The notes below the pieces were generated by a model. The model saw nothing but the letters and a program-made list of their open reading frames with translations, had not been told where the DNA came from and did not search any database. The translations under genes were made by a program, and so were the position numbers. Shown here piece by piece: positions 15,719-49,027 of a stretch of 64,000 nt of DNA; the first letter of the stretch is position 1; every line of letters starts with the position of its first letter. The stretch comes from Candidatus Gastranaerophilales bacterium (GTDB lineage: Bacteria; Cyanobacteriota; Vampirovibrionia; Gastranaerophilales; Gastranaerophilaceae), in contig CAKMWI010000008.1 of assembly GCA_928722015.1 (NCBI GenBank), forward strand, positions 212,837 through 276,836. The letters run 5' to 3'.

Positions 15719-17284
15719 TTATTGTTCAAGTAATCGTTTACTTTCTTGTATAAGAAAGTCTTTGCCTGGCTTTATTTCAATAAAATCCCAAGGAAAAGTT
15801 TTATTGTAGGCATAATTTTCAGTAGCATAATAATCAGTGTTTATACCTAGTTTTTTTGCGGCTTTTTTGAATGCTCCAAGTTTAGCTCCTGATTTATAGA
15901 CTTCAATGATGTAATCTGTAAGTTTAGCATCCCCTCTGGATAATACTGCCTGATAATAATCCCATTTTGCACTTGATATGCTTGCTTGAATACCTAACTT
16001 ATGAAGTTCTTTTCTTAAATATAATGATTTTTCTTCCAGTGATTTTTCATCATCTCTACCAAACCATTGGAATGGAGTGTTTGCCTTTGGTACGAACGTT
16101 GAAAATCCGAATGAAATATCAAAATCTTTATATTTTGCTTTAATTCTTTTTGCAAGGTTTACTATTTCTTGAATATCTTCAAATGTTTCGGTTGGAAGTC
16201 CTATCATTCCATAAAATTTTATCCCATGTAACCCGCACTGTTTTGCCACTTCTATTGCATTGTAGATTTGTGTTTCTTCAAGATTTTTGTTTATAACTTT
16301 TCTAAGTCTTTCACTACCTGCTTCTATTGCTAAAGTAAGATTTTTTTGTCCTGCATCAACAAGTGTTTGAACTACTTCCGGAATGAATGAGTCTACGCGA
16401 AGCGAGGATACACTCATTTCAATGTTTTTACCATTTTTGATTTTATTATCTATGTATTTACAAATGTCTTTAAATCTCGGGTGTGCAGTAATTTGTGCCC
16501 CAAGAAGTGCCAGTTTGTTTGTGTATTTTAGTCCAAGTTCTATTGTTTCTATTATTTTCTCATATTCAACAAACCTGATTGGTAAATTCATATATGAAGC
16601 CAGGCAAAAACCGCATCTGTTTGCGCAGCCTCTTTCTACCTCTAATATAAATGTATTTGAAAAGAAAGCATTTGGACTTATTATTGGAGTATAGATACAT
16701 TCGGATAATTTCTTTGTTATTTTTTTTACGGTAGTCTGTTTTAATGAAGGAACATATATTCCTTCTATCTGGCTGAGTTTTTCTAAAATTTCTTTTTTAG
16801 TTTTGTTTTTATTTTCTTTGCATATTTGTATTGCTTCGATATTTATATCTTCGCCATCGCCAATTATCAGAAAATCAAATATTTCTTTATATGGTTCAGG
16901 ATTAGATGTGATAACCGGTCCACCGGCAAATATTAACGGAGCTTTTTCATCTCTGTCTTTTGCTTTAAATTCATATTTATTCCAATCCAAAAAGTGGAAT
17001 ATTGAAAGAAAATCCATATCAAACGTAAATGAATATCCGATTAAATCAATTTTATCCTTATGTATTTTTGTGGTTTTTGTGTCTGAGTATATTCGTTCAA
17101 TATTTACGCCATCCAGCATATCAATTGATTTATAAAGCCACAAGTAGCCTAATGATGATAAAGCAAATGATTCCGGTCCGGGGAATGCAAACCACATATT
17201 GAAGTCGTAATTTCTTGTAAGTTCGCGGTTATATAAAAATATTTCATTGTTAGTTTTCAATATTTGACTCCAATTCTTTTGCAT
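15719..17284 (-). CDS. B12-binding-domain radical SAM protein, TIGR03960-like (unfused paralog)
   Basis: N-terminus ...WFAFPGPESFALSSLGYLWLY. Radical SAM Cys motif CANRCGFCLASYM. It is a paralog of the N-terminal half of the 50883-53408 gene. Confidence 0.75.
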   Translation of the reverse strand: MQKNWSQILKTNNEIFLYNRELTRNYDFNMWFAFPGPESFALSSLGYLWLYKSIDMLDGVNIERIYSDTKTTKIHKDKIDLIGYSFTFDMDFLSIFHFLDWNKYEFKAKDRDEKAPLIFAGGPVITSNPEPYKEIFDFLIIGDGEDINIEAIQICKENKNKTKKEILEKLSQIEGIYVPSLKQTTVKKITKKLSECIYTPIISPNAFFSNTFILEVERGCANRCGFCLASYMNLPIRFVEYEKIIETIELGLKYTNKLALLGAQITAHPRFKDICKYIDNKIKNGKNIEMSVSSLRVDSFIPEVVQTLVDAGQKNLTLAIEAGSERLRKVINKNLEETQIYNAIEVAKQCGLHGIKFYGMIGLPTETFEDIQEIVNLAKRIKAKYKDFDISFGFSTFVPKANTPFQWFGRDDEKSLEEKSLYLRKELHKLGIQASISSAKWDYYQAVLSRGDAKLTDYIIEVYKSGAKLGAFKKAAKKLGINTDYYATENYAYNKTFPWDFIEIKPGKDFLIQESKRLLEQ

Positions 17285-23714: not shown

Positions 23715-23837
23715 TGTTCCCTCCTTCTTTGAGCTAATTATAAAATATTATTGGGATAATAAATTAGCTATTTGATTAGTCTTTATATTTAATTATTTGT
23801 TGTTGCAAAACTTAAGTGTTTATACTAAACTGTGCCT

Positions 23838-24965
23838 ATGAATAAGAAGAATATATTATTTATTTTTGGAACAAGACCGGAAGTTATAAAACTTGCACCT
23901 GTTATATTAGAGCTAAAGAAATATCCGGACAAATACAAAGTTATTCTCTGCAATACAGAGCAACAAAAAGAATTATCAAATCAAACATTGAGTTATTTTA
24001 ATTTAAAGGCTGATGTGAATTTGGATTGTATGCGTCCAAATCAATCTTTAGCGGAAGTTCAATCAAGAATACTTACAGCACTTGATGGTGTTTTTGCCCA
24101 TAATAATATTGACGCAACTATAGTGCAAGGTGATACGATGACAGTATTGTGCGGTGCTTTAACAAGTTTTTATCGTAAAATTCCAGTCTTTCATGTTGAA
24201 GCAGGACTTCGTTCTTATGATATTTTTGAACCTTTTCCTGAAGAAATTATGAGGCAAATGACCTCCAGAGTTGCGGAATTAAATTTCGCACCCACTGAAA
24301 AAAATAAAAAAGCTTTATTAAAAGAAGATATACCTGATAATAAAATATTTGTTACAGGTAATACTGTTATTGATGCATTATTTTGTTTGTCTGACGATAC
24401 TATGAATAAAGCTGAAAGTTTTTATTTATCAAATAAGATTCCGGTTGATGATAAGTTGATATTAATTACTGTTCACAGACGTGAAAATCACGGAAATAGA
24501 ATTGACAGAATTTTGGATTCTATTGAGTATCTTGTAAATAAATATACTGATCATCATTTTGTGATACCTGTTCATCCAAATCCAAATGTTAAAGATAAAA
24601 TATATTCTCGCTTGGATAAGTATAAAAATATATATTTATTAGCACCTTTAGATTATCCTTATCTTGTTTACTTAATGAAGAATGCAAAACTTATTTTGAC
24701 AGATTCAGGTGGTATTCAAGAAGAGGCTCCGTCTTTTGGCTGTCCGACTCTTGTTATGAGATATGAGACTGAACGCCAAGAAGGTATAGATGCAGGTGTC
24801 TCAGTTTTAGTCGGAGCTGAGTATGATAAAATTGTGGGATTGAGTTCTGAAATTTTAAATAAATCACGTTCTGAGTCTCGTCTAAAGGTTCAAAATCCTT
24901 ATGGAACCGGTGATTCTGCAAAACGTATTGAAGCTATTATTTCTTCATATTTTGTACATCACTAA
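23838..24965 (+). CDS. wecB: UDP-N-acetylglucosamine 2-epimerase (non-hydrolysing)
   Basis: MNKKNILFIFGTRPEVIKLAPVILEL...HVEAGLRS...ITVHRREN...GGIQEEAPSFGCPTLVMR matches WecB/MnaA family signatures. Confidence 0.85.
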   Translation: MNKKNILFIFGTRPEVIKLAPVILELKKYPDKYKVILCNTEQQKELSNQTLSYFNLKADVNLDCMRPNQSLAEVQSRILTALDGVFAHNNIDATIVQGDTMTVLCGALTSFYRKIPVFHVEAGLRSYDIFEPFPEEIMRQMTSRVAELNFAPTEKNKKALLKEDIPDNKIFVTGNTVIDALFCLSDDTMNKAESFYLSNKIPVDDKLILITVHRRENHGNRIDRILDSIEYLVNKYTDHHFVIPVHPNPNVKDKIYSRLDKYKNIYLLAPLDYPYLVYLMKNAKLILTDSGGIQEEAPSFGCPTLVMRYETERQEGIDAGVSVLVGAEYDKIVGLSSEILNKSRSESRLKVQNPYGTGDSAKRIEAIISSYFVHH

Positions 24966-26546: not shown

Positions 26547-28598
26547 ATGGGAATGGCGGCATCACAAGCCAGATTATTATCGATAACAGCTCGTTTAGCT
26601 GATAACGAGTTGAGATCACAAACGATTAATAATGCTAAAATGCGCTTGGCTACTCAAAGTTCTCAAGCTAGTGAAAGTTATATTAGCGCATTAAATGATG
26701 CTAATTTAATGTTTTCAAATTATGATGCTGAAGGAAATTCTCAATCTCAGTTGTTAACTTATAATGCTTTAACTGCTTACAGTTCATATAATAACCAATA
26801 TGGTCTTGTAAATTCATCAGGGCAACTTTTGGTTAGTGAATCTGAAGCTGATTTATTCGAAAAATCTAACGGAAATTTAAACGCATATTTAAAATCACAT
26901 GGGTTAGAATATACAACTACATATTTTGATCAATTAGGTAATATGGTTAACGAAGGTTATCCTGTACCATTCGATGTTATTAGTCCTGAAACTTTAAGAG
27001 AAATGTACGAAGCTTATGGCAGTTATGAAAATTCATTAGAAACTGATAAGTTTGAAAAATTTTACAAAGATTATGTTGATGCAGATAATGCATTAAAAGT
27101 TGGTTCAAAAGAAATTATGGAAAGTTATTTATTATCAAACAATAACTCTCCAAAAATTTCTAAAGATTCAACTAATCTTATATCTATTGATATTTTAGGA
27201 AATGCTCAAGAATTGGCTCAAAAGTTTAAGAATGCATTTACAAATTCAAATAATACATATAGTATTCCGAATTTGAAAAATATGGGACTTACTGATGAGG
27301 GTGCTACTGCAATTCAAGAAATGTTGGATTCTGTAAGTTTTGAAAGTTCATCAGTAGGTAAGATTGAAGAATCTCTTCCTGGAGTTTATACAAGAGGTGA
27401 TGATGGTTCTGAAACTATTGTGATTACCGACGATGCTACAGGCGTTGAAATTACTTTTACAAAAGATGCCAGCGGTACTATTACAGTTACAGGCAATCCT
27501 GAATTATCATATACTGACACTGAAAATCCTGAAGACAACTATAATTATACTTATACAATAGGTTCAACGCTTTTGGATACTGTGAATTCTTTAAAATATG
27601 ACTCAGTTGAAGATAAGCATAGCTTTAATGTTAGTTTGGATGCAGACGGCACTGTTGATGCAAAATCAGTATATAAATATAATTTATCTCCATCAAGCGG
27701 TGATGAAATTGGTTTTAAGCAGGCTCTTGATGAACTTGCAGAATCAATTTTGGATGCAATTCGTACTACAGAAGAATACTTCAACTATGGTGCATTTGCA
27801 GATAAATTACTTGAATGGAGAGAAACCGGTACAGATTTAGCAGCTAAAGGTATTGATATTAATAAAGTTTTAAAATCTGGTAAGACTTATACTGAAGTTT
27901 TAGATGAATATAAAACTATAAAAGATGCTTATTTAGGTTTTATTGAAGTTGGTTATAAACCGTCAATTTTGGAAAAATCTCCATTAGAACAACTTATTGA
28001 AGATGGTAAACTTACAACAAAGGATTTATTAGATACTGATAAACTTCTTAAAATTCTTGCTGAAAATAATATTGCTTTTACAAATGAATATAAAACAGTT
28101 ATTCAAGAGTTCATTGTGGAATCTATGATAGAAGAATATGGTGAACCTAAGTATGCCTGGGTTGACGAAAATGATACTGCTAATACCGGAAATGCTGATG
28201 CAAAAGCTCAGTGGTATACTAATATGTTTAATAGAATGAAACAAGGGTATAAAATTATTGAAAATGGTCTTGCCTCTTCTTCTGAATGGCTTGAATTTGC
28301 TTTAGAAAGTGGTCTTGTAACTATGGAACAAGTTGATAAATCCTTTAACTGGAAATCTTTGGATTATAAAACTTGTAGTAATATTACCGAAGAAACTGAT
28401 AACAGTGAGCTTGTTGCAAAGGCTGAAGCAGAATATAACAGAGCAATGAAAGATATAGATGCCAAAGATAGTATCTATGATATGGAATTAAAAAATATTG
28501 ATACTGAACATACTGCATTGCAAACTGAATATGATTCAATAAAAAGTGTTATATCTAAGAATATTGAAAGAACCTTCAAATTTAATCAGAATGGCTAA
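26547..28598 (+). CDS. Large hypothetical protein (683 aa, acidic, no signal peptide)
   Basis: RBS GAAAGGA. N-terminus MGMAASQARLLSITARLADNELRSQTINNAKMRLATQSS. No recognisable catalytic motifs. Confidence 0.5.
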   Translation: MGMAASQARLLSITARLADNELRSQTINNAKMRLATQSSQASESYISALNDANLMFSNYDAEGNSQSQLLTYNALTAYSSYNNQYGLVNSSGQLLVSESEADLFEKSNGNLNAYLKSHGLEYTTTYFDQLGNMVNEGYPVPFDVISPETLREMYEAYGSYENSLETDKFEKFYKDYVDADNALKVGSKEIMESYLLSNNNSPKISKDSTNLISIDILGNAQELAQKFKNAFTNSNNTYSIPNLKNMGLTDEGATAIQEMLDSVSFESSSVGKIEESLPGVYTRGDDGSETIVITDDATGVEITFTKDASGTITVTGNPELSYTDTENPEDNYNYTYTIGSTLLDTVNSLKYDSVEDKHSFNVSLDADGTVDAKSVYKYNLSPSSGDEIGFKQALDELAESILDAIRTTEEYFNYGAFADKLLEWRETGTDLAAKGIDINKVLKSGKTYTEVLDEYKTIKDAYLGFIEVGYKPSILEKSPLEQLIEDGKLTTKDLLDTDKLLKILAENNIAFTNEYKTVIQEFIVESMIEEYGEPKYAWVDENDTANTGNADAKAQWYTNMFNRMKQGYKIIENGLASSSEWLEFALESGLVTMEQVDKSFNWKSLDYKTCSNITEETDNSELVAKAEAEYNRAMKDIDAKDSIYDMELKNIDTEHTALQTEYDSIKSVISKNIERTFKFNQNG

Positions 28599-41356: not shown

Positions 41357-42484
41357 TTACTTAATCCTCATATTTACTGTGTCTGAAATCCAATTAATTA
41401 TTTGTTTTTTGTATTCTTGCGAATATGCTATTTCATATATATTTTTTCTTTCTGGAAATATCCCTATAATGGAATAACATTTTGAAACTTGGGATTCTGG
41501 AATTTTGTCAAATCTATATCGCTTTTTGAAGTTAGTGTATAAAACAATATGCGGTTTATTGGTTTCAGATAATATCTCTGATAATCCGCTTCTTAATGAT
41601 ATTATTGCAGTGGCCTTAGATGCTAGAGTATAAGCTTCTCCTATGCTGAAATTTTTATTATTTCTTATTGTTTTTATATGGAGCTGTTTTTCCAGTTCAT
41701 TCCAAAATTCTTCGTCTAAGCATTCGCATGTATTTGCTTTAGTAGAAATAAATATAAATTTACTGATATTATGCTCTTTTAAATATTCAGATACGTTTTT
41801 TTGTACTTCAGGTTTGATTTTTATTTTGTTAATTTCAAAAATATTTTCTTTTGATAGCATAAAATAGTTATATATCTCAGATAAATAATGGCACTGACCA
41901 AGTCTAACTTTATCCTCTGTTTCTATATAAAATTTCATTGGAAATGCTGTATATACATATTTATTATCTATAGTGAAATATTTTTGACTTGTTTCATACT
42001 TGAGGTTTGTAAGAAGTTTGCAATCGATATCTGGAGTCAGCATTTCAATTAACTCAAGATGGTACTTTTTTGTCGCAATAATAATTGGAGTATCTGATTT
42101 TTCTATCAGTCCGTTGAATATGTATTTCAGGAATAGATAAGCTTCTCCAAGATTTGATTTAAGTATGAATATTTTATTATATTTGTTACTAAGGTATTTT
42201 TTTAAAATTCTTTTTGTTTGTTCTGTTTTATTTATTTTCTTTTTAAAAATATCAAGAATGTTATATTCAATACTGTCATCATCTTCTGTTCGAGTAATTA
42301 TTTTTCTATTACAAATGTTTATTGTTCTGGTTTCTGTGAAGTTCTTATAAATTTTTTCTTTAGAAATTAGCCCAAGAAATATTTTAGTCTTGTGGTTATA
42401 GTCTTTTTGTTCTGAAAATAATTTGATACCAAATAAATTATACTCTTTTTTATTTTTTGATAAATTCAATGCAAAGTGCTCCAA
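41357..42484 (-). CDS. GT9-family-like glycosyltransferase (heptosyltransferase-like), paralog of 36773-37876
   Basis: KIFILKSNLGEAYLFLKYIFNGL resembles the GT9 N-terminal K(I)L(V)I(R)..(S)LGD motif. The C-terminal ATAIISLRSGLSEILSETNKPHIVLY resembles GNDSGPMHLAAALGTP. Confidence 0.45.
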   Translation of the reverse strand: MEHFALNLSKNKKEYNLFGIKLFSEQKDYNHKTKIFLGLISKEKIYKNFTETRTINICNRKIITRTEDDDSIEYNILDIFKKKINKTEQTKRILKKYLSNKYNKIFILKSNLGEAYLFLKYIFNGLIEKSDTPIIIATKKYHLELIEMLTPDIDCKLLTNLKYETSQKYFTIDNKYVYTAFPMKFYIETEDKVRLGQCHYLSEIYNYFMLSKENIFEINKIKIKPEVQKNVSEYLKEHNISKFIFISTKANTCECLDEEFWNELEKQLHIKTIRNNKNFSIGEAYTLASKATAIISLRSGLSEILSETNKPHIVLYTNFKKRYRFDKIPESQVSKCYSIIGIFPERKNIYEIAYSQEYKKQIINWISDTVNMRIK

Positions 42485-42487
42485 ATT

Positions 42488-44272
42488 TTAAACTTGAATT
42501 AAATCCTGCTGTCTAAATTGTGCTTCGTATAAACTTTTATATGCCCCGTTTTCAATTTTTAGAAGTTCTTCATGTGTTCCTTCTTCGACAATATGTGCTT
42601 TGTTTACGACAATTATTTTATCCGCATTTTTTATCGTGGATAGTCTATGTGCGATTACAAATACTGTTTTGTCTTTCATTAAATTATCAATCGCTTTTTG
42701 CACAACTGCTTCGGCTTTATTATCAAGAGCAGATGTGGCTTCATCCAGGACAACGATAGGTGCATTTTTTAGAAAAGCTCTTGCTATTGCTATTCTTTGT
42801 TTTTGGCCTCCTGAAAGTCGAATTCCACGTTCTCCTATTTCTGTATTTAATCCTTTTTCAAGGGATGTTACAAATTCTTCAAGGCATGCCATTTTTACTG
42901 ATAATTTAATTTCATCTTCTGTTGCATCGGGTTTACCAAGTAATATGTTTTCTTTTATTGTGCCGGAAAATAAGAAATTATCTTGAAAAACGACGGCGAT
43001 GTTTGCTCTTAAAGAGGCAAGTTCAAAGTTTTTTATATTAACACCGTCGAATAGTATTTCTCCTGATTCTAAATTGTAAAACCTTGGTAATAGATTTACC
43101 AGTGTTGTTTTTCCGCCTCCGGAATTTCCAACGAAGGCTGTTGTTGTTCCGGCTTTTACTTTAAAGTTTATATTTTCCAGTACGTCAGGTAATTTAGGAC
43201 TGTATCTGAAAAATACATTTTTATATTCAATACTTTCATTAAGCCCTTGCATTTTTATGCAATTTGGATTGTCCAAAATTTGCGGTTTACGGTTTAGCAT
43301 TCCAAAGATTCTGTCAATTGCCATAAACGAAAATTGAACATCATTTAGATTGTTACCGAGATTTTTTATAGGTGTGTAAAGCATAATTAATGCAGTTATG
43401 AAAGAGACAAAATTTCCGCTTGTAATGGTTTTTGTTATAATTAAATGGCTGCCGTATCCTATAGCTGCACCTATTCCTATTGAAACTATTACATGCATCA
43501 TAGGGGAAAGCCAAGATGTCCTCTGTGTGATTTTTATTTTAAAGTTAAATATATTATCTTGTACTTCATCAAATTTTTTCATTTGAATGTTTTCGAGGTT
43601 ATATGAGGTGATAGTTTTGTTTCCTGCGTAGGTTTCATTATAGATGGTTATGATTTTTGAGCCTGCTGTAACCGATTTATTCATAACTTCTTTGATTCTG
43701 TCTCTAATTTTTGCTAAAGGAAGAAATGCGCATCCTAGAACTGTTATAGCTATTATTGAAAGCTGCCAAGAATTGTATATTAAAACTGCAGTGAGAGATA
43801 TTGAAGAAAATAATCTTGATATAAAAGTTTTCAAGTTATTTAGTAACCCGCTGCAGGCAAGATCTGCATCTTTATTAAATCGATATATAATGTCTCCTGA
43901 TTTTCTTGAGTCAAAAAAAGCTGTTTCAAAATGTAGTAGGCTCTTATATAAATCTCGTTTTAAATCATTTGTTATTTTTCCTCCAACCCAGGTATTGAGG
44001 TATATTGCAAGGTAATTTAGTAATCCTTGAATGCATGTGAATAATACTATTCCTAAAGGTATGTACCATGGTGAGTGTATTGATTTATCAACCATGACGA
44101 TGTCCATATAAGGCTTTAGCGCCAGCGCTATTACTGCGTCCAGTGAACCTATTGGAATGCAAATTAGAATGGCCATTATTGCTCTAAAGCTGTATGGCTT
44201 TATATATGGCCACATTCGCTTATAATTTTTGACAAACTCAATTTTTGCAACTTTTGATTTAATTTTATCCAT
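42488..44272 (-). CDS. ABC exporter, fused TMD-NBD, MsbA/lipid-flippase-like
   Basis: Six N-terminal TM helices. Walker A GNSGGGKTT. ABC signature LSGGQKQRIAIARA. Walker B VVLDEATSALD. Confidence 0.85.
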   Translation of the reverse strand: MDKIKSKVAKIEFVKNYKRMWPYIKPYSFRAIMAILICIPIGSLDAVIALALKPYMDIVMVDKSIHSPWYIPLGIVLFTCIQGLLNYLAIYLNTWVGGKITNDLKRDLYKSLLHFETAFFDSRKSGDIIYRFNKDADLACSGLLNNLKTFISRLFSSISLTAVLIYNSWQLSIIAITVLGCAFLPLAKIRDRIKEVMNKSVTAGSKIITIYNETYAGNKTITSYNLENIQMKKFDEVQDNIFNFKIKITQRTSWLSPMMHVIVSIGIGAAIGYGSHLIITKTITSGNFVSFITALIMLYTPIKNLGNNLNDVQFSFMAIDRIFGMLNRKPQILDNPNCIKMQGLNESIEYKNVFFRYSPKLPDVLENINFKVKAGTTTAFVGNSGGGKTTLVNLLPRFYNLESGEILFDGVNIKNFELASLRANIAVVFQDNFLFSGTIKENILLGKPDATEDEIKLSVKMACLEEFVTSLEKGLNTEIGERGIRLSGGQKQRIAIARAFLKNAPIVVLDEATSALDNKAEAVVQKAIDNLMKDKTVFVIAHRLSTIKNADKIIVVNKAHIVEEGTHEELLKIENGAYKSLYEAQFRQQDLIQV

Positions 44273-44399
44273 AGAAGTAATCCCAAATAGAAAGTTCTCT
44301 CCTTTGACAATTTTAATATGGTGAACTTGAAATGTGAGAATTTACAAAAAAAAGATTAGCCGAGTGGCTAATCTTTACGTAATATAAATTTACAATCTG

Positions 44400-45416
44400 T
44401 CAATTATTTATAACACTATCGAATCCATTCCAATTAAATGATTTTGTGTTTACTTTTAGTGAATTTTGGGCCGGATTTTGAGTTTTTAACTCTTTAAATT
44501 GGTCTTTAAAATCTTTTTTTAAATCAAGCATGGGAAGATTAAATTCTTTTGCTATTTTATCAATTTTAATATCATAGTTTATTGCAAGAATTTTAGCTTG
44601 AGTAAGTAATCCAACAATTATTGCATGGAATCTCATTGCAATTAAATACTCGGCTTTTGACAAATTTTCTATAATTTCTTCATTTGTAAGATTATAATAT
44701 AATTTTGTTTTTATATCCGGATTGAGCAGGTTAACTGCTTTTTCAAACTTCTTGCAGATATCTGTATCGATTGAATCTTGAAATGAATAAATTTCTATAT
44801 TTTTATCAGGAAATTCTTTGCAAACTTTCTGTGCAAGTCTGTCTATAAAGTCTTCACTCATTGTTCTAAAGTTTCGTAACTGTACTGCTACAGTATTTGA
44901 TTTTATTATTTTATTTGTTTCTATAGAAAATATTGGATCGCATAGCAGGTCTGCTTTTATTCCCCAATTTTTTAGTAATTCTAAACTCTTTTCATCTCTT
45001 ACGCTTACATAGTTACAGTGTTTTAGGAGATTTTTTGTAAGAACTATTCCTATAAAACTATTTATAGGTCCAATTCCTTGAGCAAAAATAATAACAGTTT
45101 TTCTTAATACTAGTCCGACAAATATAATGAATAAATAATATATAAGACTTTTTAAACTTGTCGCATCTTGTAAAAGACTACCGCCACCGGATATTACTAC
45201 ATCTGATTTTGATATTGCACCTATTATATCCGGAATTTTAAATGTATAAACACTACGTATATGTTTATATTGTTTCATCGTATATTTAGGATCCGAAGAT
45301 ATAACTGTAATTCTGTGTTTATCAAGTTTTAATTTTTTTATCAGCACAGATAAAATTGCTTCGTCTCCAAAATTTTTAAATCCAAAATATCCTGATAAAA
45401 CAAATCTTTTACTCAT
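44400..45416 (-). CDS. Polysaccharide pyruvyl transferase (CsaB/WcaK family)
   Basis: N-terminal GYFGFKNFGDEAILSVLI and C-terminal IAMRFHAIIVGL motifs match the family. Confidence 0.7.
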   Translation of the reverse strand: MSKRFVLSGYFGFKNFGDEAILSVLIKKLKLDKHRITVISSDPKYTMKQYKHIRSVYTFKIPDIIGAISKSDVVISGGGSLLQDATSLKSLIYYLFIIFVGLVLRKTVIIFAQGIGPINSFIGIVLTKNLLKHCNYVSVRDEKSLELLKNWGIKADLLCDPIFSIETNKIIKSNTVAVQLRNFRTMSEDFIDRLAQKVCKEFPDKNIEIYSFQDSIDTDICKKFEKAVNLLNPDIKTKLYYNLTNEEIIENLSKAEYLIAMRFHAIIVGLLTQAKILAINYDIKIDKIAKEFNLPMLDLKKDFKDQFKELKTQNPAQNSLKVNTKSFNWNGFDSVINN

Positions 45417-46363
45417 TAAAAATCCTCAGTTTTGAAGATATTATAGACTTCTTCATAGTGAGGGATTGATTTTACGGCTCCAATTCCCTGTGCTTGCAAA
45501 CCTGCAGCTATCGATGCAATCTTACCTGCTTCAATTGCAGAATAACCGTTTGCAATTGAATGTAAGTATGCTCCGTTAAAAGCATCTCCTGAAGATGTAG
45601 TATCTATAATATTTTCAGTGTAAAAAGGAACAAAATTTGTGTTGCCTTGGCAATTGATAAAGTAACCCTTATTTTCGCTTGATTTAATAACTATAGTTTG
45701 GATTCCCTGGTCTGTAAGGTATTTTGTTATATTTTCAAGAGATGCTATTTCAAAAATACTTTTTGTGTCATATTTTGAACTCATAAAAAGAATATCTGTT
45801 AAAGGTGCAATTTCATCAAAATATTCTCTTGCATCTTCCTGCGTAGAAATAAGTGGAGAATAATTTGGATCATAGGCGGTTATAATATTATTCTCTTTTG
45901 CTATTTCAAATGCTTTTTTAACGGCTTCTCTGGCAGCCATTGATAGTGATTGAGTAATACCTGATGCATATATAATTTTAGAACTTGTAATATAATCTGA
46001 GTCAATGTCATCTATAGATAACTTTGCAGGTGCAATTTTCTTTCTGTAGTATGAAAATTCTTTATCGTGCAAAGATGTTCTTGAAACCATATAAAGTCCG
46101 TTTTTCTCATTGACGATTTTTACATGAGTAGTATCAAGTCCTTCTTTTTCCCAGCTGGAAAGTAAATATTCTTTAAAAGCATCGTCTCCAAGGCATGTAA
46201 TATATCCAACAGCAGAATTTAATCTTTTTGCCGCTATTGCTACAACTAATGAATCTCCTCCATAATATTTATGAAGGCATTCTGCATCTTTTAGTCTTTG
46301 ATTTGTTGAAAATTCAATTAAACTTTCACCAATTGTTATTAAATCAAATGTGTTTTCTCTCAT
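45416..46363 (-). CDS. PfkB-family carbohydrate kinase, 2-dehydro-3-deoxygluconokinase (KdgK)-like
   Basis: N-terminal LITIGESLIEF and C-terminal DTTSSGDAFNGAYL are PfkB signatures. Its stop overlaps the next gene's start. Confidence 0.7.
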   Translation of the reverse strand: MRENTFDLITIGESLIEFSTNQRLKDAECLHKYYGGDSLVVAIAAKRLNSAVGYITCLGDDAFKEYLLSSWEKEGLDTTHVKIVNEKNGLYMVSRTSLHDKEFSYYRKKIAPAKLSIDDIDSDYITSSKIIYASGITQSLSMAAREAVKKAFEIAKENNIITAYDPNYSPLISTQEDAREYFDEIAPLTDILFMSSKYDTKSIFEIASLENITKYLTDQGIQTIVIKSSENKGYFINCQGNTNFVPFYTENIIDTTSSGDAFNGAYLHSIANGYSAIEAGKIASIAAGLQAQGIGAVKSIPHYEEVYNIFKTEDF

Positions 46364-46366
46364 ATT

Positions 46367-46972
46367 TTAGTTTAACTGCTCCAATAATTTTTTTGTTCTT
46401 GCTGTTATTTCACTATAAGAGTCTGCTACTGTCAAATGTCGTCCGACACCTACTGCGAGCGCTCCTGCCTTGAGGTAACTTGAAACTTCTTCTAATTGAA
46501 CATTTCCCTGTGGAATAACTTTTAAAAATGGCATAGGCCTTAATAAGTTTTCGATATATTCAGCACCACCCATATCTGTAATAGGGTATATTTTAACAAT
46601 TGAAATCCTTGATTTCCAAGCATTATAAGCTTCATTTGCCGTTGTAGTTCCTGCTATGAAGGGTAATCGTTTATCCTTTGAAATTTTGAGTAAATTCGTT
46701 TGGAATATTGGTGAAGAAATAATTTTGGCACCTGAGTCAATTGCAGCTTGTGCTTGCATTGAAGTTATAATTCCTCCGGCACAAATAGTTGCTTCATTTG
46801 AAAGAGTCTTAATTGCATTAAAAATTTTTGGGGTCTCGACATTTATTTCCATGATATCAAGTCCGCCATCTATTAAGGCTCTTGCTGTACCTATTACTTC
46901 TTGTATGTCTGTACTTCTTATTATTGGAAATACTTTATTTTCTGAAAGTTTTTTAAATAAATTTATGTTCAT
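46367..46972 (-). CDS. KDPG/KHG aldolase (Eda family)
   Basis: VFPIIRS...MEINVETP...CAGGIIT...FIAGTTTANEA...VKIYPI...VIPQGNV aligns with the E. coli Eda blocks, including the Schiff-base Lys context. Confidence 0.7.
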   Translation of the reverse strand: MNINLFKKLSENKVFPIIRSTDIQEVIGTARALIDGGLDIMEINVETPKIFNAIKTLSNEATICAGGIITSMQAQAAIDSGAKIISSPIFQTNLLKISKDKRLPFIAGTTTANEAYNAWKSRISIVKIYPITDMGGAEYIENLLRPMPFLKVIPQGNVQLEEVSSYLKAGALAVGVGRHLTVADSYSEITARTKKLLEQLN

Positions 46973-47038
46973 AATCTGTCCTTTTTTTTGAATTTATTAT
47001 ATCATAAAATAAAATTCACTGGGGAGCAGATTAAGATT

Positions 47039-49027
47039 ATGAAAAATTTAAAAAACAAATGGTTTTATTTTAACTCTAGTTTATTATATTTGGTGTTAAT
47101 ATTTGTATTTTTTATATTATCACTCATGTTTATTGAACAATATGCAAATAGTTTTTTAATATCTAATTTTGCGGCTAATAAAACTGGTTCACAGGATATT
47201 ATAGAAATTGTTGTGGATGATAAATCAATTCAAGAGTACAAATGGCCTTGGGCAAAAGATATGTATGCTCAAATATTGGATTATTTTCACTCTTATGCTT
47301 CTCCGAAGGTTATTGGTTTTGACATGAATGTTACGACTTTTGATGAAAATAATTCAAAAGATATGCAGTTTGCAACTCAGGTAGGTAAGATGCCAAATCT
47401 TGTTTCAGGTTTTGTTCCTGAGATTGATAATGATAATTCTGAAAAAGTTTTTTTAACTGATTTTGCAAAAAAATATTCTATTGATACAGATGTAAAACTT
47501 GAGAATCCGACTACTATATATAACGGTATTGTAAATCCTCCAGAGGCTTTGTTGAATTCTGTTAATAATTACGGTTCTGTAAAAATAGAAAGTGCAACCG
47601 GTTCCGGATATTTATTTTCTACTATAAATCTTGTGAAAATACAGGATGCTTTTTATCCATCGTTACCGTTAAAAATGTATCTGTTAGAAAATAATACCAA
47701 TAAAATTATTCTTGACCCTAGTAATATTATTGTTCCAAAAACTGGTTTAAAGATTCCTTATATGTATAAAAGCGATGGGGTTGCAAAAACATTTATAAGA
47801 TACTATAAAAATATTGTCAAAAAGGATATTATCACAGATTATTCCCATCCGAATGTGTCTGCTTCTCTTATTATCGATTCGTACAGGGCATTGAAATCAG
47901 GAATAACCCCGCAAAACCATCCTGAAATGTTTGCTGTTGGGACTGGCAAATATATTAATCCTATGTTGTTTAAAGATAAAACAGTGTTAATTGGAGCAAA
48001 TATTTCCGGTCCTTCAGCTGATGTGTTGCTTACTCCTATGGCAATGCGTCATCCGGGAGTTGATATTCAGGCTACAATTTATGATAATTTGATTAATAAC
48101 CATTTTCTGAAATTTGCAGGTGTAGGTGTTGGATTTCTCTCTTTCATAATATTATCCTTGTTGGCTTTTATTGTGATTTTAAAATTTAAGTTTTTTAAAG
48201 GAATACTTTCAATTATATTTGTCGATATTTTATATTTAATTTTTGTATTTATCTGTGCACATAATGGTTATATTATCAGTTTTGCAGTGCCGTTAGTTTT
48301 GCAGTTTGTAACAGTTGTTTTCGGGTATTCATTTAAATTTATCTCAGAGAATAGAAATAAAGAAAAAATTAAGCAGGCTATGGGTAAATACCTATCTCAA
48401 GATGTAATGAAAAATGTTGTAAGGAATATTGATGATTTAAAATTAGGCGGGAAAAGGGCTATTGTAACGGTTTTATTTTCTGATATAAGAGGTTTTACAA
48501 GTCTAAGTGAAAAGATGTCTGCTGAAGAAGTATCAATGATTTTAAATGAATATTTTGCGGAAATGGAACCTATTATCTCAAAATATAATGGTGTAATTAA
48601 TAAATTTATAGGTGATGCGGTTATGGCTATCTTTGGCGAACCTATTCAAGATATAAATCATGCCCAAAATGCTGTAAAATGTGCCTATGAAATGCTTAAA
48701 AAGGTAGAGTATCTTCGTGAAAAATGGTTATTTGAAGGCAAACCAAAAATTGAAATAGGAATAGGTATTAATACCGGTGAAGTATTTATAGGTAATATTG
48801 GTACAGAAACAAGGATGGAGTATACGGTTATTGGTGATACGGTCAATTTAGCCAGCAGAATTGAAAGTTATAATAAAGTATATAAAACTAATTTGTTAGT
48901 AAGTAGTTCAACTTATTCTTCGATTTCTGATATTGCTGATGTTATAAAAATTAGTGAGGTTCAGATTCGTGGTAAGTCAAAGAAAATGAATATTTACGAA
49001 GTTTTAAGAATTGATGTTTCAAAATAA
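47039..49027 (+). CDS. CHASE2 sensor domain - class III adenylate/guanylate cyclase
   Basis: The N-terminal TM is followed by a periplasmic CHASE2-like region, then 3-4 TM helices. The C-terminus VTVLFSDIRGFTSLSE...FIGDAVMAIFGEP...IGINTGEVFIGNIG is a class III cyclase domain. The internal ATG at 47039 was chosen because the track start at 46988 is only 16 nt from the divergent gene. Confidence 0.8.
   Translation: MKNLKNKWFYFNSSLLYLVLIFVFFILSLMFIEQYANSFLISNFAANKTGSQDIIEIVVDDKSIQEYKWPWAKDMYAQILDYFHSYASPKVIGFDMNVTTFDENNSKDMQFATQVGKMPNLVSGFVPEIDNDNSEKVFLTDFAKKYSIDTDVKLENPTTIYNGIVNPPEALLNSVNNYGSVKIESATGSGYLFSTINLVKIQDAFYPSLPLKMYLLENNTNKIILDPSNIIVPKTGLKIPYMYKSDGVAKTFIRYYKNIVKKDIITDYSHPNVSASLIIDSYRALKSGITPQNHPEMFAVGTGKYINPMLFKDKTVLIGANISGPSADVLLTPMAMRHPGVDIQATIYDNLINNHFLKFAGVGVGFLSFIILSLLAFIVILKFKFFKGILSIIFVDILYLIFVFICAHNGYIISFAVPLVLQFVTVVFGYSFKFISENRNKEKIKQAMGKYLSQDVMKNVVRNIDDLKLGGKRAIVTVLFSDIRGFTSLSEKMSAEEVSMILNEYFAEMEPIISKYNGVINKFIGDAVMAIFGEPIQDINHAQNAVKCAYEMLKKVEYLREKWLFEGKPKIEIGIGINTGEVFIGNIGTETRMEYTVIGDTVNLASRIESYNKVYKTNLLVSSSTYSSISDIADVIKISEVQIRGKSKKMNIYEVLRIDVSK

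Follow-up and report, generated by a model that had tools for sequence, protein, structure and literature searches.

Why should a pyruvate-forming aldolase and a sugar-acid kinase stand directly in front of csaB, the gene of a pyruvyl transferase that acts on a wall polymer? This question is raised by a 64,000-nucleotide stretch of DNA from Candidatus Gastranaerophilales bacterium (contig CAKMWI010000008.1, assembly GCA_928722015.1, positions 212,837 to 276,836), which was analysed as a whole and is called the window here. Our preferred answer, to which we give about an even chance, is that a KdgK-like kinase, an Eda-like aldolase and CsaB are encoded by one self-contained operon, in which a 2-keto-3-deoxy-sugar-acid module is co-expressed with CsaB. 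The three genes are the following.

46972..46367, minus strand: aldolase gene, 201 amino acids (aa), first gene of the unit
46363..45416, minus strand: KdgK-like kinase gene, 315 aa, second gene
45416..44400, minus strand: csaB, third gene, secondary-cell-wall-polymer pyruvyl transferase

Read on the minus strand, the aldolase/kinase junction is AAC TAA aat ATG AGA, with a gap of 3 nt, and the kinase/csaB junction is GAT TTT TAATG AGT, where the kinase stop and the csaB start overlap by 1 nt. The preliminary description of this DNA had named the kinase and the aldolase as the first two genes of an operon and had given their stop and start as overlapping. The two do lead a unit, one of three genes, with the aldolase first and the kinase second, and the TAATG overlap belongs to the kinase and csaB.

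The exact aldolase was found on many gut-metagenome contigs with identical synteny, and scanning a single genome for each species gave 60 loci whose aldolases are 63-82% identical; the majority of those with a taxonomic label are named Gastranaerophilales, Melainabacteria or “Cyanobacteria bacterium UBA”. Beyond these loci, identity falls to 28-30%, which is the ordinary Eda of Burkholderiaceae and others. By tblastn synteny, the order aldolase-kinase-csaB, with a divergent cyclase gene in front, is present in nearly all 60 loci, and the block turned up again in environmental and gut contigs, at 49-60% aldolase and 44-51% CsaB identity, when metagenomes were scanned with more distant relatives as seeds. 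Neighbours were counted as non-redundant clusters of open reading frames (ORFs) over 123 loci: in 84 loci the kinase occupies +1 and csaB +2, and in 11 loci, which lack the kinase, csaB itself is at +1. The aldolase-(kinase)-csaB order thus recurs in 95 independent loci, and the arrangement is therefore not due to chance. The junctions are tight throughout, from -11 to +8 nt between aldolase and kinase (n=94), from -14 to +4 nt between kinase and csaB (88 of 89) and from -1 to +16 nt between aldolase and csaB in the kinase-less loci (n=11). The block was also seen, at 68-78% aldolase identity, in bins named Acutalibacteraceae, Methanomethylophilaceae archaeon, Bacteroidaceae, Muribaculaceae and Clostridium (L026, L031, L038, L056, L064 and L070), which are probably mis-binned contigs.

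The three genes form one predicted transcription unit, which runs from a conserved promoter to a terminator after csaB. The elements that bound it, together with that of the next unit, are listed here.

46996..47004, minus strand: extended -10 promoter element TGATATAAT, in the cyclase/aldolase spacer, preceding the aldolase gene
46979..46983, minus strand: Shine-Dalgarno sequence AAGGA of the aldolase gene, in the conserved AAAAAAGGAxAGATTATG
44343..44376, minus strand: intrinsic terminator with 11-bp stem, 4-nt loop and T-run, closing the three-gene unit
44310..44338, minus strand: promoter-like element CTCACA-17-TAAAAT, for the next transcription unit

In an alignment of 24 lineages, kinase-less ones included, the core ATGATATAATAA, which contains TGATATAAT, is identical or near-identical and lies about 30 nt 5' of the aldolase ATG, and the conserved AAGGA lies 8 nt ahead of that ATG. 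The 5' untranslated region (UTR) of the aldolase gene would be only about 25 nt long. A riboswitch or leader RNA before the aldolase was considered and rejected, given this short 5' UTR and an Rfam search of the window that returned, at gathering threshold, only three tRNAs. At the other end, a hairpin with a perfect 11-bp stem (44376..44351; dG -14.5 kcal/mol) begins 24 nt past the csaB stop, and transcription would end there. A homologous hairpin, TTAGCC....GGCTAA, is found in relatives; the terminator is claimed firmly only for the window and its close relatives, since a crude hairpin scan of all relatives gave clear terminators at no more than some of the loci. The spacer between csaB and the MsbA-like gene that follows it measures 127 nt, and the -10-like sequence ACCATATTAAAAT at 44322..44310 is conserved in four relatives (L022, L011, L025 and L109). 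With a terminator and a promoter-like element after csaB, the downstream glycan genes are predicted to be a separate unit, contrary to the earlier proposal that the pair heads a large glycan operon. The link to pyruvyl transferases that was proposed with it stands in the form of co-transcription with csaB, as indicated by translational coupling, a shared promoter and deep synteny. As for a separately transcribed catabolic pair with hexuronate genes elsewhere, which the preliminary description had set against its own reading, the outcome is mixed: the pair does have its own promoter, but the terminator follows csaB and not the kinase, and no hexuronate genes were found in the window or in any flank.

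The gene on the other side of the promoter spacer is the following.

47039..49027, plus strand: CHASE2-sensor adenylate/guanylate cyclase (PF05226 and PF00211), divergent from the aldolase gene

Its ORF opens at 46988, the probable start is 47039, and the spacer to the aldolase is about 66 nt in the window. A cyclase is at -1 of the aldolase in 91 of the 123 loci; across related loci the divergent cyclase always adjoins the aldolase, with a shared spacer of about 60 to 170 nt. From this adjacency, the aldolase-kinase-csaB operon would seem to have a regulatory link to an envelope or extracellular sensor.

The aldolase matches PF01081, “KDPG and KHG aldolase” (KDPG, 2-keto-3-deoxy-6-phosphogluconate; KHG, 2-keto-4-hydroxyglutarate), with 106.2 bits against a gathering threshold of 27.8, and is about 30% identical to the KDPG aldolase of Thermotoga maritima. 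It stays below the NCBIfam cutoffs, with 132.6 bits against 156.05 for TIGR01182, 139.3 against 232 for NF005673 and 116.2 against 238 for NF005119; NF005673 is its top NCBIfam model, only marginally above the generic TIGR01182. All representatives of the divergent subfamily to which it belongs score below the TIGR01182 cutoff, whereas the canonical-type neighbours P0135 and P0137 pass it. When 1.84 billion cluster representatives were searched exhaustively, no more than 15 clusters came up at E<=1e-30.

Residues of E. coli Eda (K133, E45, R49, T73, P94 and F135; PMC5334617) were traced in the window aldolase. The catalytic K127 (E. coli K133, the Schiff-base lysine) and E42 (E45, the general base) are invariant in three alignments, P94 is retained as P88, and F135 is replaced conservatively by Y129. 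The R49 position is occupied by E46, and the arginine of T. maritima-type enzymes (R17) is present as R19; the idea that the change at R49 means a loss of carboxylate binding was dropped for this reason. G67 takes the T73 position, and T70, three residues on, is invariant. The PTGG loop (T161-G162-G163) is changed to PQGN (Q155-G156-N157) and S184 to R178, and of these residues the subfamily as a whole keeps just G156 and R178. In E. coli Eda, the PTGG loop and S184 serve the phosphate and the C4 hydroxyl, and T161 sets the C4 stereochemistry by which Eda and DgoA differ. The subfamily has Q, M, C, S or A at the T161 position, and the whole PTGG motif is replaced variably, by PQGN, AQGD, PMGN, PCGF, ATGS or PAGG. 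Further traits shared by the nearest full-length representatives (37-52% identity) are TxNEAYxAW, (R)PM(P)FL, G-x-G-R in place of G-x-G-S/G, and xAG(G/S)(I/V)IT where Eda has GAGTV, the site of E. coli T73. Little or no variation is seen at the catalytic Lys and Glu and at the Arg of T. maritima type. The AlphaFold model of the aldolase (pLDDT 94.8) superimposes on 1VLW/1WA3 with a TM-score of 0.92 and a root-mean-square deviation of 1.6-1.9 A, and bears out the TIM-barrel fold of a KDPG aldolase. From the retained catalytic residues and this TM-score, the protein is predicted to be an intact class I pyruvate aldolase, whose aldehyde/phosphate pocket appears unlike those of the characterised Eda and DgoA enzymes.

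The kinase matches PF00294 (PfkB) with 154.5 bits, so that the family-level naming of both proteins in the preliminary description, as an Eda-family aldolase and a KdgK-like PfkB kinase, is correct. Its top NCBIfam matches are the 2-keto-3-deoxygluconate (KDG)/KDGal kinase, IolC and KdgK models, all far below cutoff (NF040938 KDG/KDGal kinase, 144.8 against 400; TIGR04382 IolC, 140.3 against 300; NF052444 KdgK, 133.7 against 400), and in the PDB it is closest to the KDG kinases of Sulfolobus and Thermus, a Halothermothrix “fructokinase” and a protein similar to IolC. The pairing of such a kinase with such an aldolase is a classical one, and both window proteins also match a fused NCBIfam model, “KHG/KDPG aldolase/sugar kinase”. 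The catalytic Asp of the GxGD motif, D260, is invariant in 84 kinase sequences, and the YYR(K) carboxylate-binding motif of KDG kinases is retained together with this GD aspartate. Seven KDG-recognition residues are known from the S. solfataricus KDG kinase: G34, Y90, Y106, R108, R166, D258 and D294 (PMC5334617). Five of the seven are retained in the clade, G34, R108 and D258 being invariant and Y90 and Y106 mostly present among the 84 members. The protein is a KdgK-like kinase, most likely for a sugar acid.

The third gene reaches an equivalog cutoff, as CsaB scores 259.1 bits for TIGR03609 against 213.1. CsaB-type enzymes take phosphoenolpyruvate (PEP) as donor and not pyruvate. The proposal that the pair supplies or scavenges pyruvate units for the pyruvyl transferases is therefore chemically indirect. 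About 20 kb from csaB, on the opposite strand, a UDP-GlcNAc 2-epimerase gene (23832..24965, plus strand; PF02350, 343 bits) would provide N-acetylmannosamine (ManNAc), the sugar pyruvylated by CsaB-type enzymes.

A neighbour-joining tree of the aldolases, rooted with two sister clades, shows the csaB-linked clade as monophyletic, with aldolase-kinase-csaB as its ancestral state. The kinase is retained in about 88% of the csaB-linked loci and has been lost at least three times (L156; L111, L116, L129 and L132; L062, L063 and L065 to L068). On the kinase-less branches the aldolase is intact (in L065, for instance, the K, E and R are all there) and abuts csaB. With three kinase losses and the aldolase-csaB order kept each time, the aldolase-csaB link outlasts the aldolase-kinase link. 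One further locus, L130 (a human gut contig of about 2x coverage), has the cyclase and the aldolase with no kinase or csaB match; the near-identical L131 has both, and the absence in L130 likely reflects low-coverage frameshifts rather than true loss.

Neither the kinase nor csaB is near the aldolase in the sister clades. In the first (about 45% identity; L101-L106 and L171, about 9001-9603), the aldolase is start/stop coupled to a preceding unknown ORF of 100-134 aa and faces a divergent pair of kdsD-like (SIS+CBS) and kdsC-like (HAD) genes. BamA and a LeuA/CimA-like synthase are close by. In the second (L155, L166, L169, L172 and L173), it is the third gene of lysA-cdaA-aldolase-gcvPB; here cdaA, for a diadenylate cyclase, is a second nucleotide-cyclase neighbour of the aldolase, and lysA encodes diaminopimelate decarboxylase. 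The aldolase gene behaves like a housekeeping gene, often with envelope-related genes beside it, and only one large clade ties it to csaB. Since it stays with csaB when the kinase is lost and occurs alone in the sister clades, the aldolase probably also has a kinase-independent pyruvate-lyase activity.

The genes beyond csaB are arranged as follows.

34459..44272, minus strand: variable glycan gene island of about 10 kb, outside the conserved unit
33636..34418, minus strand: 260-aa membrane protein (cluster c8), at the far edge of the island and directly after csaB in 22 relatives

The island encodes an MsbA-like ABC exporter, a 375-aa unknown protein, a 517-aa nucleotidyl transferase, a HAD phosphatase, a phosphomannose isomerase-like (PMI-like) protein, an Rpe-like protein, a 367-aa unknown protein and a 776-aa fusion (34459..36789) of Fer4, FrhB-like and pyruvyl-transferase domains. 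Only some 11 to 12 of the 95 loci (about 12%) have it after csaB. The gene after csaB is that of the 260-aa membrane protein in 22 loci, an opposite-strand Na+-symporter-like gene in 11, an MsbA-like gene in 8 and one of many others elsewhere. In the window, the 260-aa gene has its own strong promoter-like site (34453..34425), and past it lie patatin-like and thioredoxin-reductase-like genes; in other species such genes stand immediately behind csaB. Because the 260-aa gene stands just beyond the island and yet next to csaB in relatives, the island is a predicted insertion between the two and no part of the conserved unit.

In the reading that we prefer, the kinase would phosphorylate a 2-keto-3-deoxy sugar acid, KDG or a near analogue, and the aldolase, through its Schiff-base lysine, would split the phosphorylated product into pyruvate and a phosphorylated aldehyde such as glyceraldehyde 3-phosphate (GAP). 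The pair would thus be a small salvage or catabolic branch that feeds the C3 (PEP/pyruvate) pool, co-expressed with CsaB, a PEP consumer that pyruvylates the wall polymer bound by SLH-domain proteins. Co-expression may serve to supply or balance the PEP/pyruvate pool, or may reflect shared regulation, with the aldolase as the core partner of csaB. Several observations weigh against this reading. No uxaC, uxuA, kduI, kduD, edd or KDG transporter gene was found in the 64-kb window or in about 170 flanks, and uxa/uxu/kdu genes, a KDG transporter and a KdgR-type regulator were likewise not found among the annotated ORFs of the window or the recurrent neighbours in about 120 loci. Both enzymes remain under every curated equivalog cutoff. 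Among 84 kinase sequences, 69 have S at the R166 position and the others K, T, H or Y, never R, and 82 have A at the D294 position; in the aldolase, the changes at T73 (to Gly), PTGG (to PQGN) and S184 (to R) point the same way. The persistence of the aldolase without the kinase tells against a plain catabolic version, and with PEP as the donor of CsaB any metabolic supply link would be indirect.

Part of this evidence is shared with a reading that we consider possible but doubtful, namely that the aldolase has a housekeeping role as a pyruvate lyase of broad specificity (oxaloacetate decarboxylase and/or KHG aldolase) at the PEP-pyruvate-oxaloacetate node, with a dispensable kinase and with shared housekeeping regulation as the link to csaB. 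The aldolase without the kinase in three independent sub-lineages and two sister clades fits this well, as does the lack of KDG-forming genes close by, and the EDA of Synechocystis is promiscuous, acting on KDPG, oxaloacetate and KHG, in a cell without a KDPG source (bioRxiv 10.64898/2026.04.01.715859). However, the kinase is ancestral in the csaB-linked clade, kept in most of its loci and tightly coupled, which argues for a phosphorylated sugar acid as a real substrate there. Orthology with the cyanobacterial EDA could not be established either, as NF005673 gives 139 bits against 232 and is barely better than TIGR01182. It is less probable, and in our view improbable, that the divergent Eda-like subfamily is dedicated to the envelope, its aldolase, with or without the kinase, acting on or making a 3-deoxy-2-ulosonic acid of the 3-deoxy-D-manno-octulosonic acid (Kdo) or Kdn type, for example as a class I aldolase for Kdo-8-P <-> pyruvate + arabinose-5-P, or being needed for CsaB-dependent pyruvylation of a wall polymer. 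Such a function would account for the envelope genes beside the aldolase in all three clades (csaB; divergent kdsD and kdsC; lysA-cdaA), and the residues at the T161 position and the PMI-like, HAD phosphatase and nucleotidyl-transferase genes downstream in the window are consistent with it. The argument is one of neighbourhood, however, with kdsDC on the opposite strand, and we know of no chemistry that joins a pyruvate aldolase to PEP-dependent ketal formation. The synthesis of a Kdo/KDN-like ulosonic acid, as suggested in the preliminary description, has no support, since the aldolase is clade-wide and the PMI/HAD/nucleotidyl-transferase genes that might lend plausibility to such a route occur in so few loci; a KdsA/NeuB-type PEP-dependent synthase with a CMP-activating enzyme had no Pfam match at 33.6-47 kb. 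In addition, KDPG-type aldolases favour cleavage, the Synechocystis EDA having about 2% reverse activity (bioRxiv 10.64898/2026.04.01.715859). A direct glycan-making role for the pair is unsupported.

That the order is a frozen accident, in which csaB depends on the aldolase promoter, has no functional link to its partners and is held in place by the cost of acquiring a new promoter, seems quite unlikely to us. No lineage has a spacer upstream of csaB and the aldolase neighbours in the sister clades are unrelated, as this explanation would have it, but the four-gene block persists down to about 45-50% protein identity with both flanks reshuffled, and the kinase deletions are precise, with the aldolase-csaB coupling kept three separate times. 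We give the least credence, and very little, to the earlier reading in which the pair heads one long glycan operon and supplies or scavenges pyruvate units for both pyruvyl transferases. The pair is indeed co-directional with csaB and the 776-aa protein, all on the minus strand, so that 13 kb run in one direction with two downstream proteins that carry pyruvyl-transferase domains. A strong terminator and a promoter-like element after csaB stand against a single operon, as do the absence of the island from most relatives, the opposite strand of the next gene in 29 of 86 loci, and the use of PEP as pyruvyl donor; the single long operon was rejected because of the terminator and promoter-like element and because the island is present in some relatives and absent from others.

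The preferred reading, a sugar-acid module co-expressed with CsaB, resembles known systems in part. KdgK/Eda-KdgA pairs of hexuronate, pectin and alginate catabolism and of the semi-phosphorylative Entner-Doudoroff pathway belong to the same two families and are encoded by adjacent genes; the examples compared were T. maritima TM0066 (1VLW/1WA3), the Sulfolobus KDG kinase (2V78/2VAR) and the characterised Flavobacterium pair FlKin/FlAld (PMC5334617). The window aldolase shares with them the catalytic Lys and Glu and the TM-score of 0.92 to TM0066, and the kinase shares G34, Y90, Y106, R108 and D258. In contrast to those pairs, no genes or transporters for uronate, pectin or alginate lie close to the window pair, which is joined transcriptionally to csaB, scores below all NCBIfam cutoffs, and has a kinase that lacks R166 and D294 and is dispensable in several lineages. 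The orphan EDA of cyanobacteria (Synechocystis Sll0107; NF005673/PRK07455) is likewise an Eda-family protein of the cyanobacterial lineage with no evident KDPG source; the window aldolase differs in lying below the NF005673 equivalog cutoff, and most Melainabacterial loci have a partner kinase, which, like the csaB linkage, is not reported for the cyanobacterial EDA. With the csaB loci of SLH/secondary-cell-wall-polymer systems, such as csaAB of Bacillus anthracis, the window shares a CsaB of equivalog level and has wall-glycan genes nearby, among them that of the UDP-GlcNAc 2-epimerase; its csaB differs in closing an operon that starts with genes of metabolic enzymes. The literature found describes no aldolase or kinase partner of csaB, no link between CsaB and KDPG aldolase, no KDPG metabolism in Melainabacteria and no uronate use by Gastranaerophilales. 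What is new is that a divergent Eda/KdgK-like pair is firmly tied to csaB throughout a lineage.

The pyruvylated polymer made by CsaB binds SLH-domain proteins, which in cyanobacteria-type envelopes tether the outer membrane. A csaB gene tied to a pyruvate-forming aldolase in the non-photosynthetic sister lineage of cyanobacteria is thus an unexpected link between C3 metabolism and envelope assembly. The role of Eda-family aldolases in the cyanobacterial lineage without the Entner-Doudoroff pathway is a current question (bioRxiv 10.64898/2026.04.01.715859; PMC10847513), for which the operon offers testable candidates in its partner kinase, its natural kinase-less variants and the two sister-clade contexts. 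If the aldolase were dedicated to the envelope, this would hint at a role for the orphan EDA in cyanobacteria; if the link is one of co-regulation only, the operon would be an ordinary sugar-acid module in an unusual setting.

Among the other ORFs of the window, two large ones, at 5968..9780 (minus strand, 1270 aa) and at 26547..28598 (plus strand, 683 aa), are without a Pfam match at E<=1e-5. The 375-aa and 367-aa island proteins have no Pfam hit. Within the island, the 517-aa protein has only an N-terminal nucleotidyl-transferase domain, the HAD phosphatase is BT0820-like, the PMI-like protein is a cupin, and the Rpe-like protein resembles Rpe and allulose-6-P epimerase. The nucleotidyl-transferase gene and that of the 128-aa HAD phosphatase overlap by 44 nt (39802..39845, minus strand), and the same overlap is found in the relative L001 at 17128..17171.

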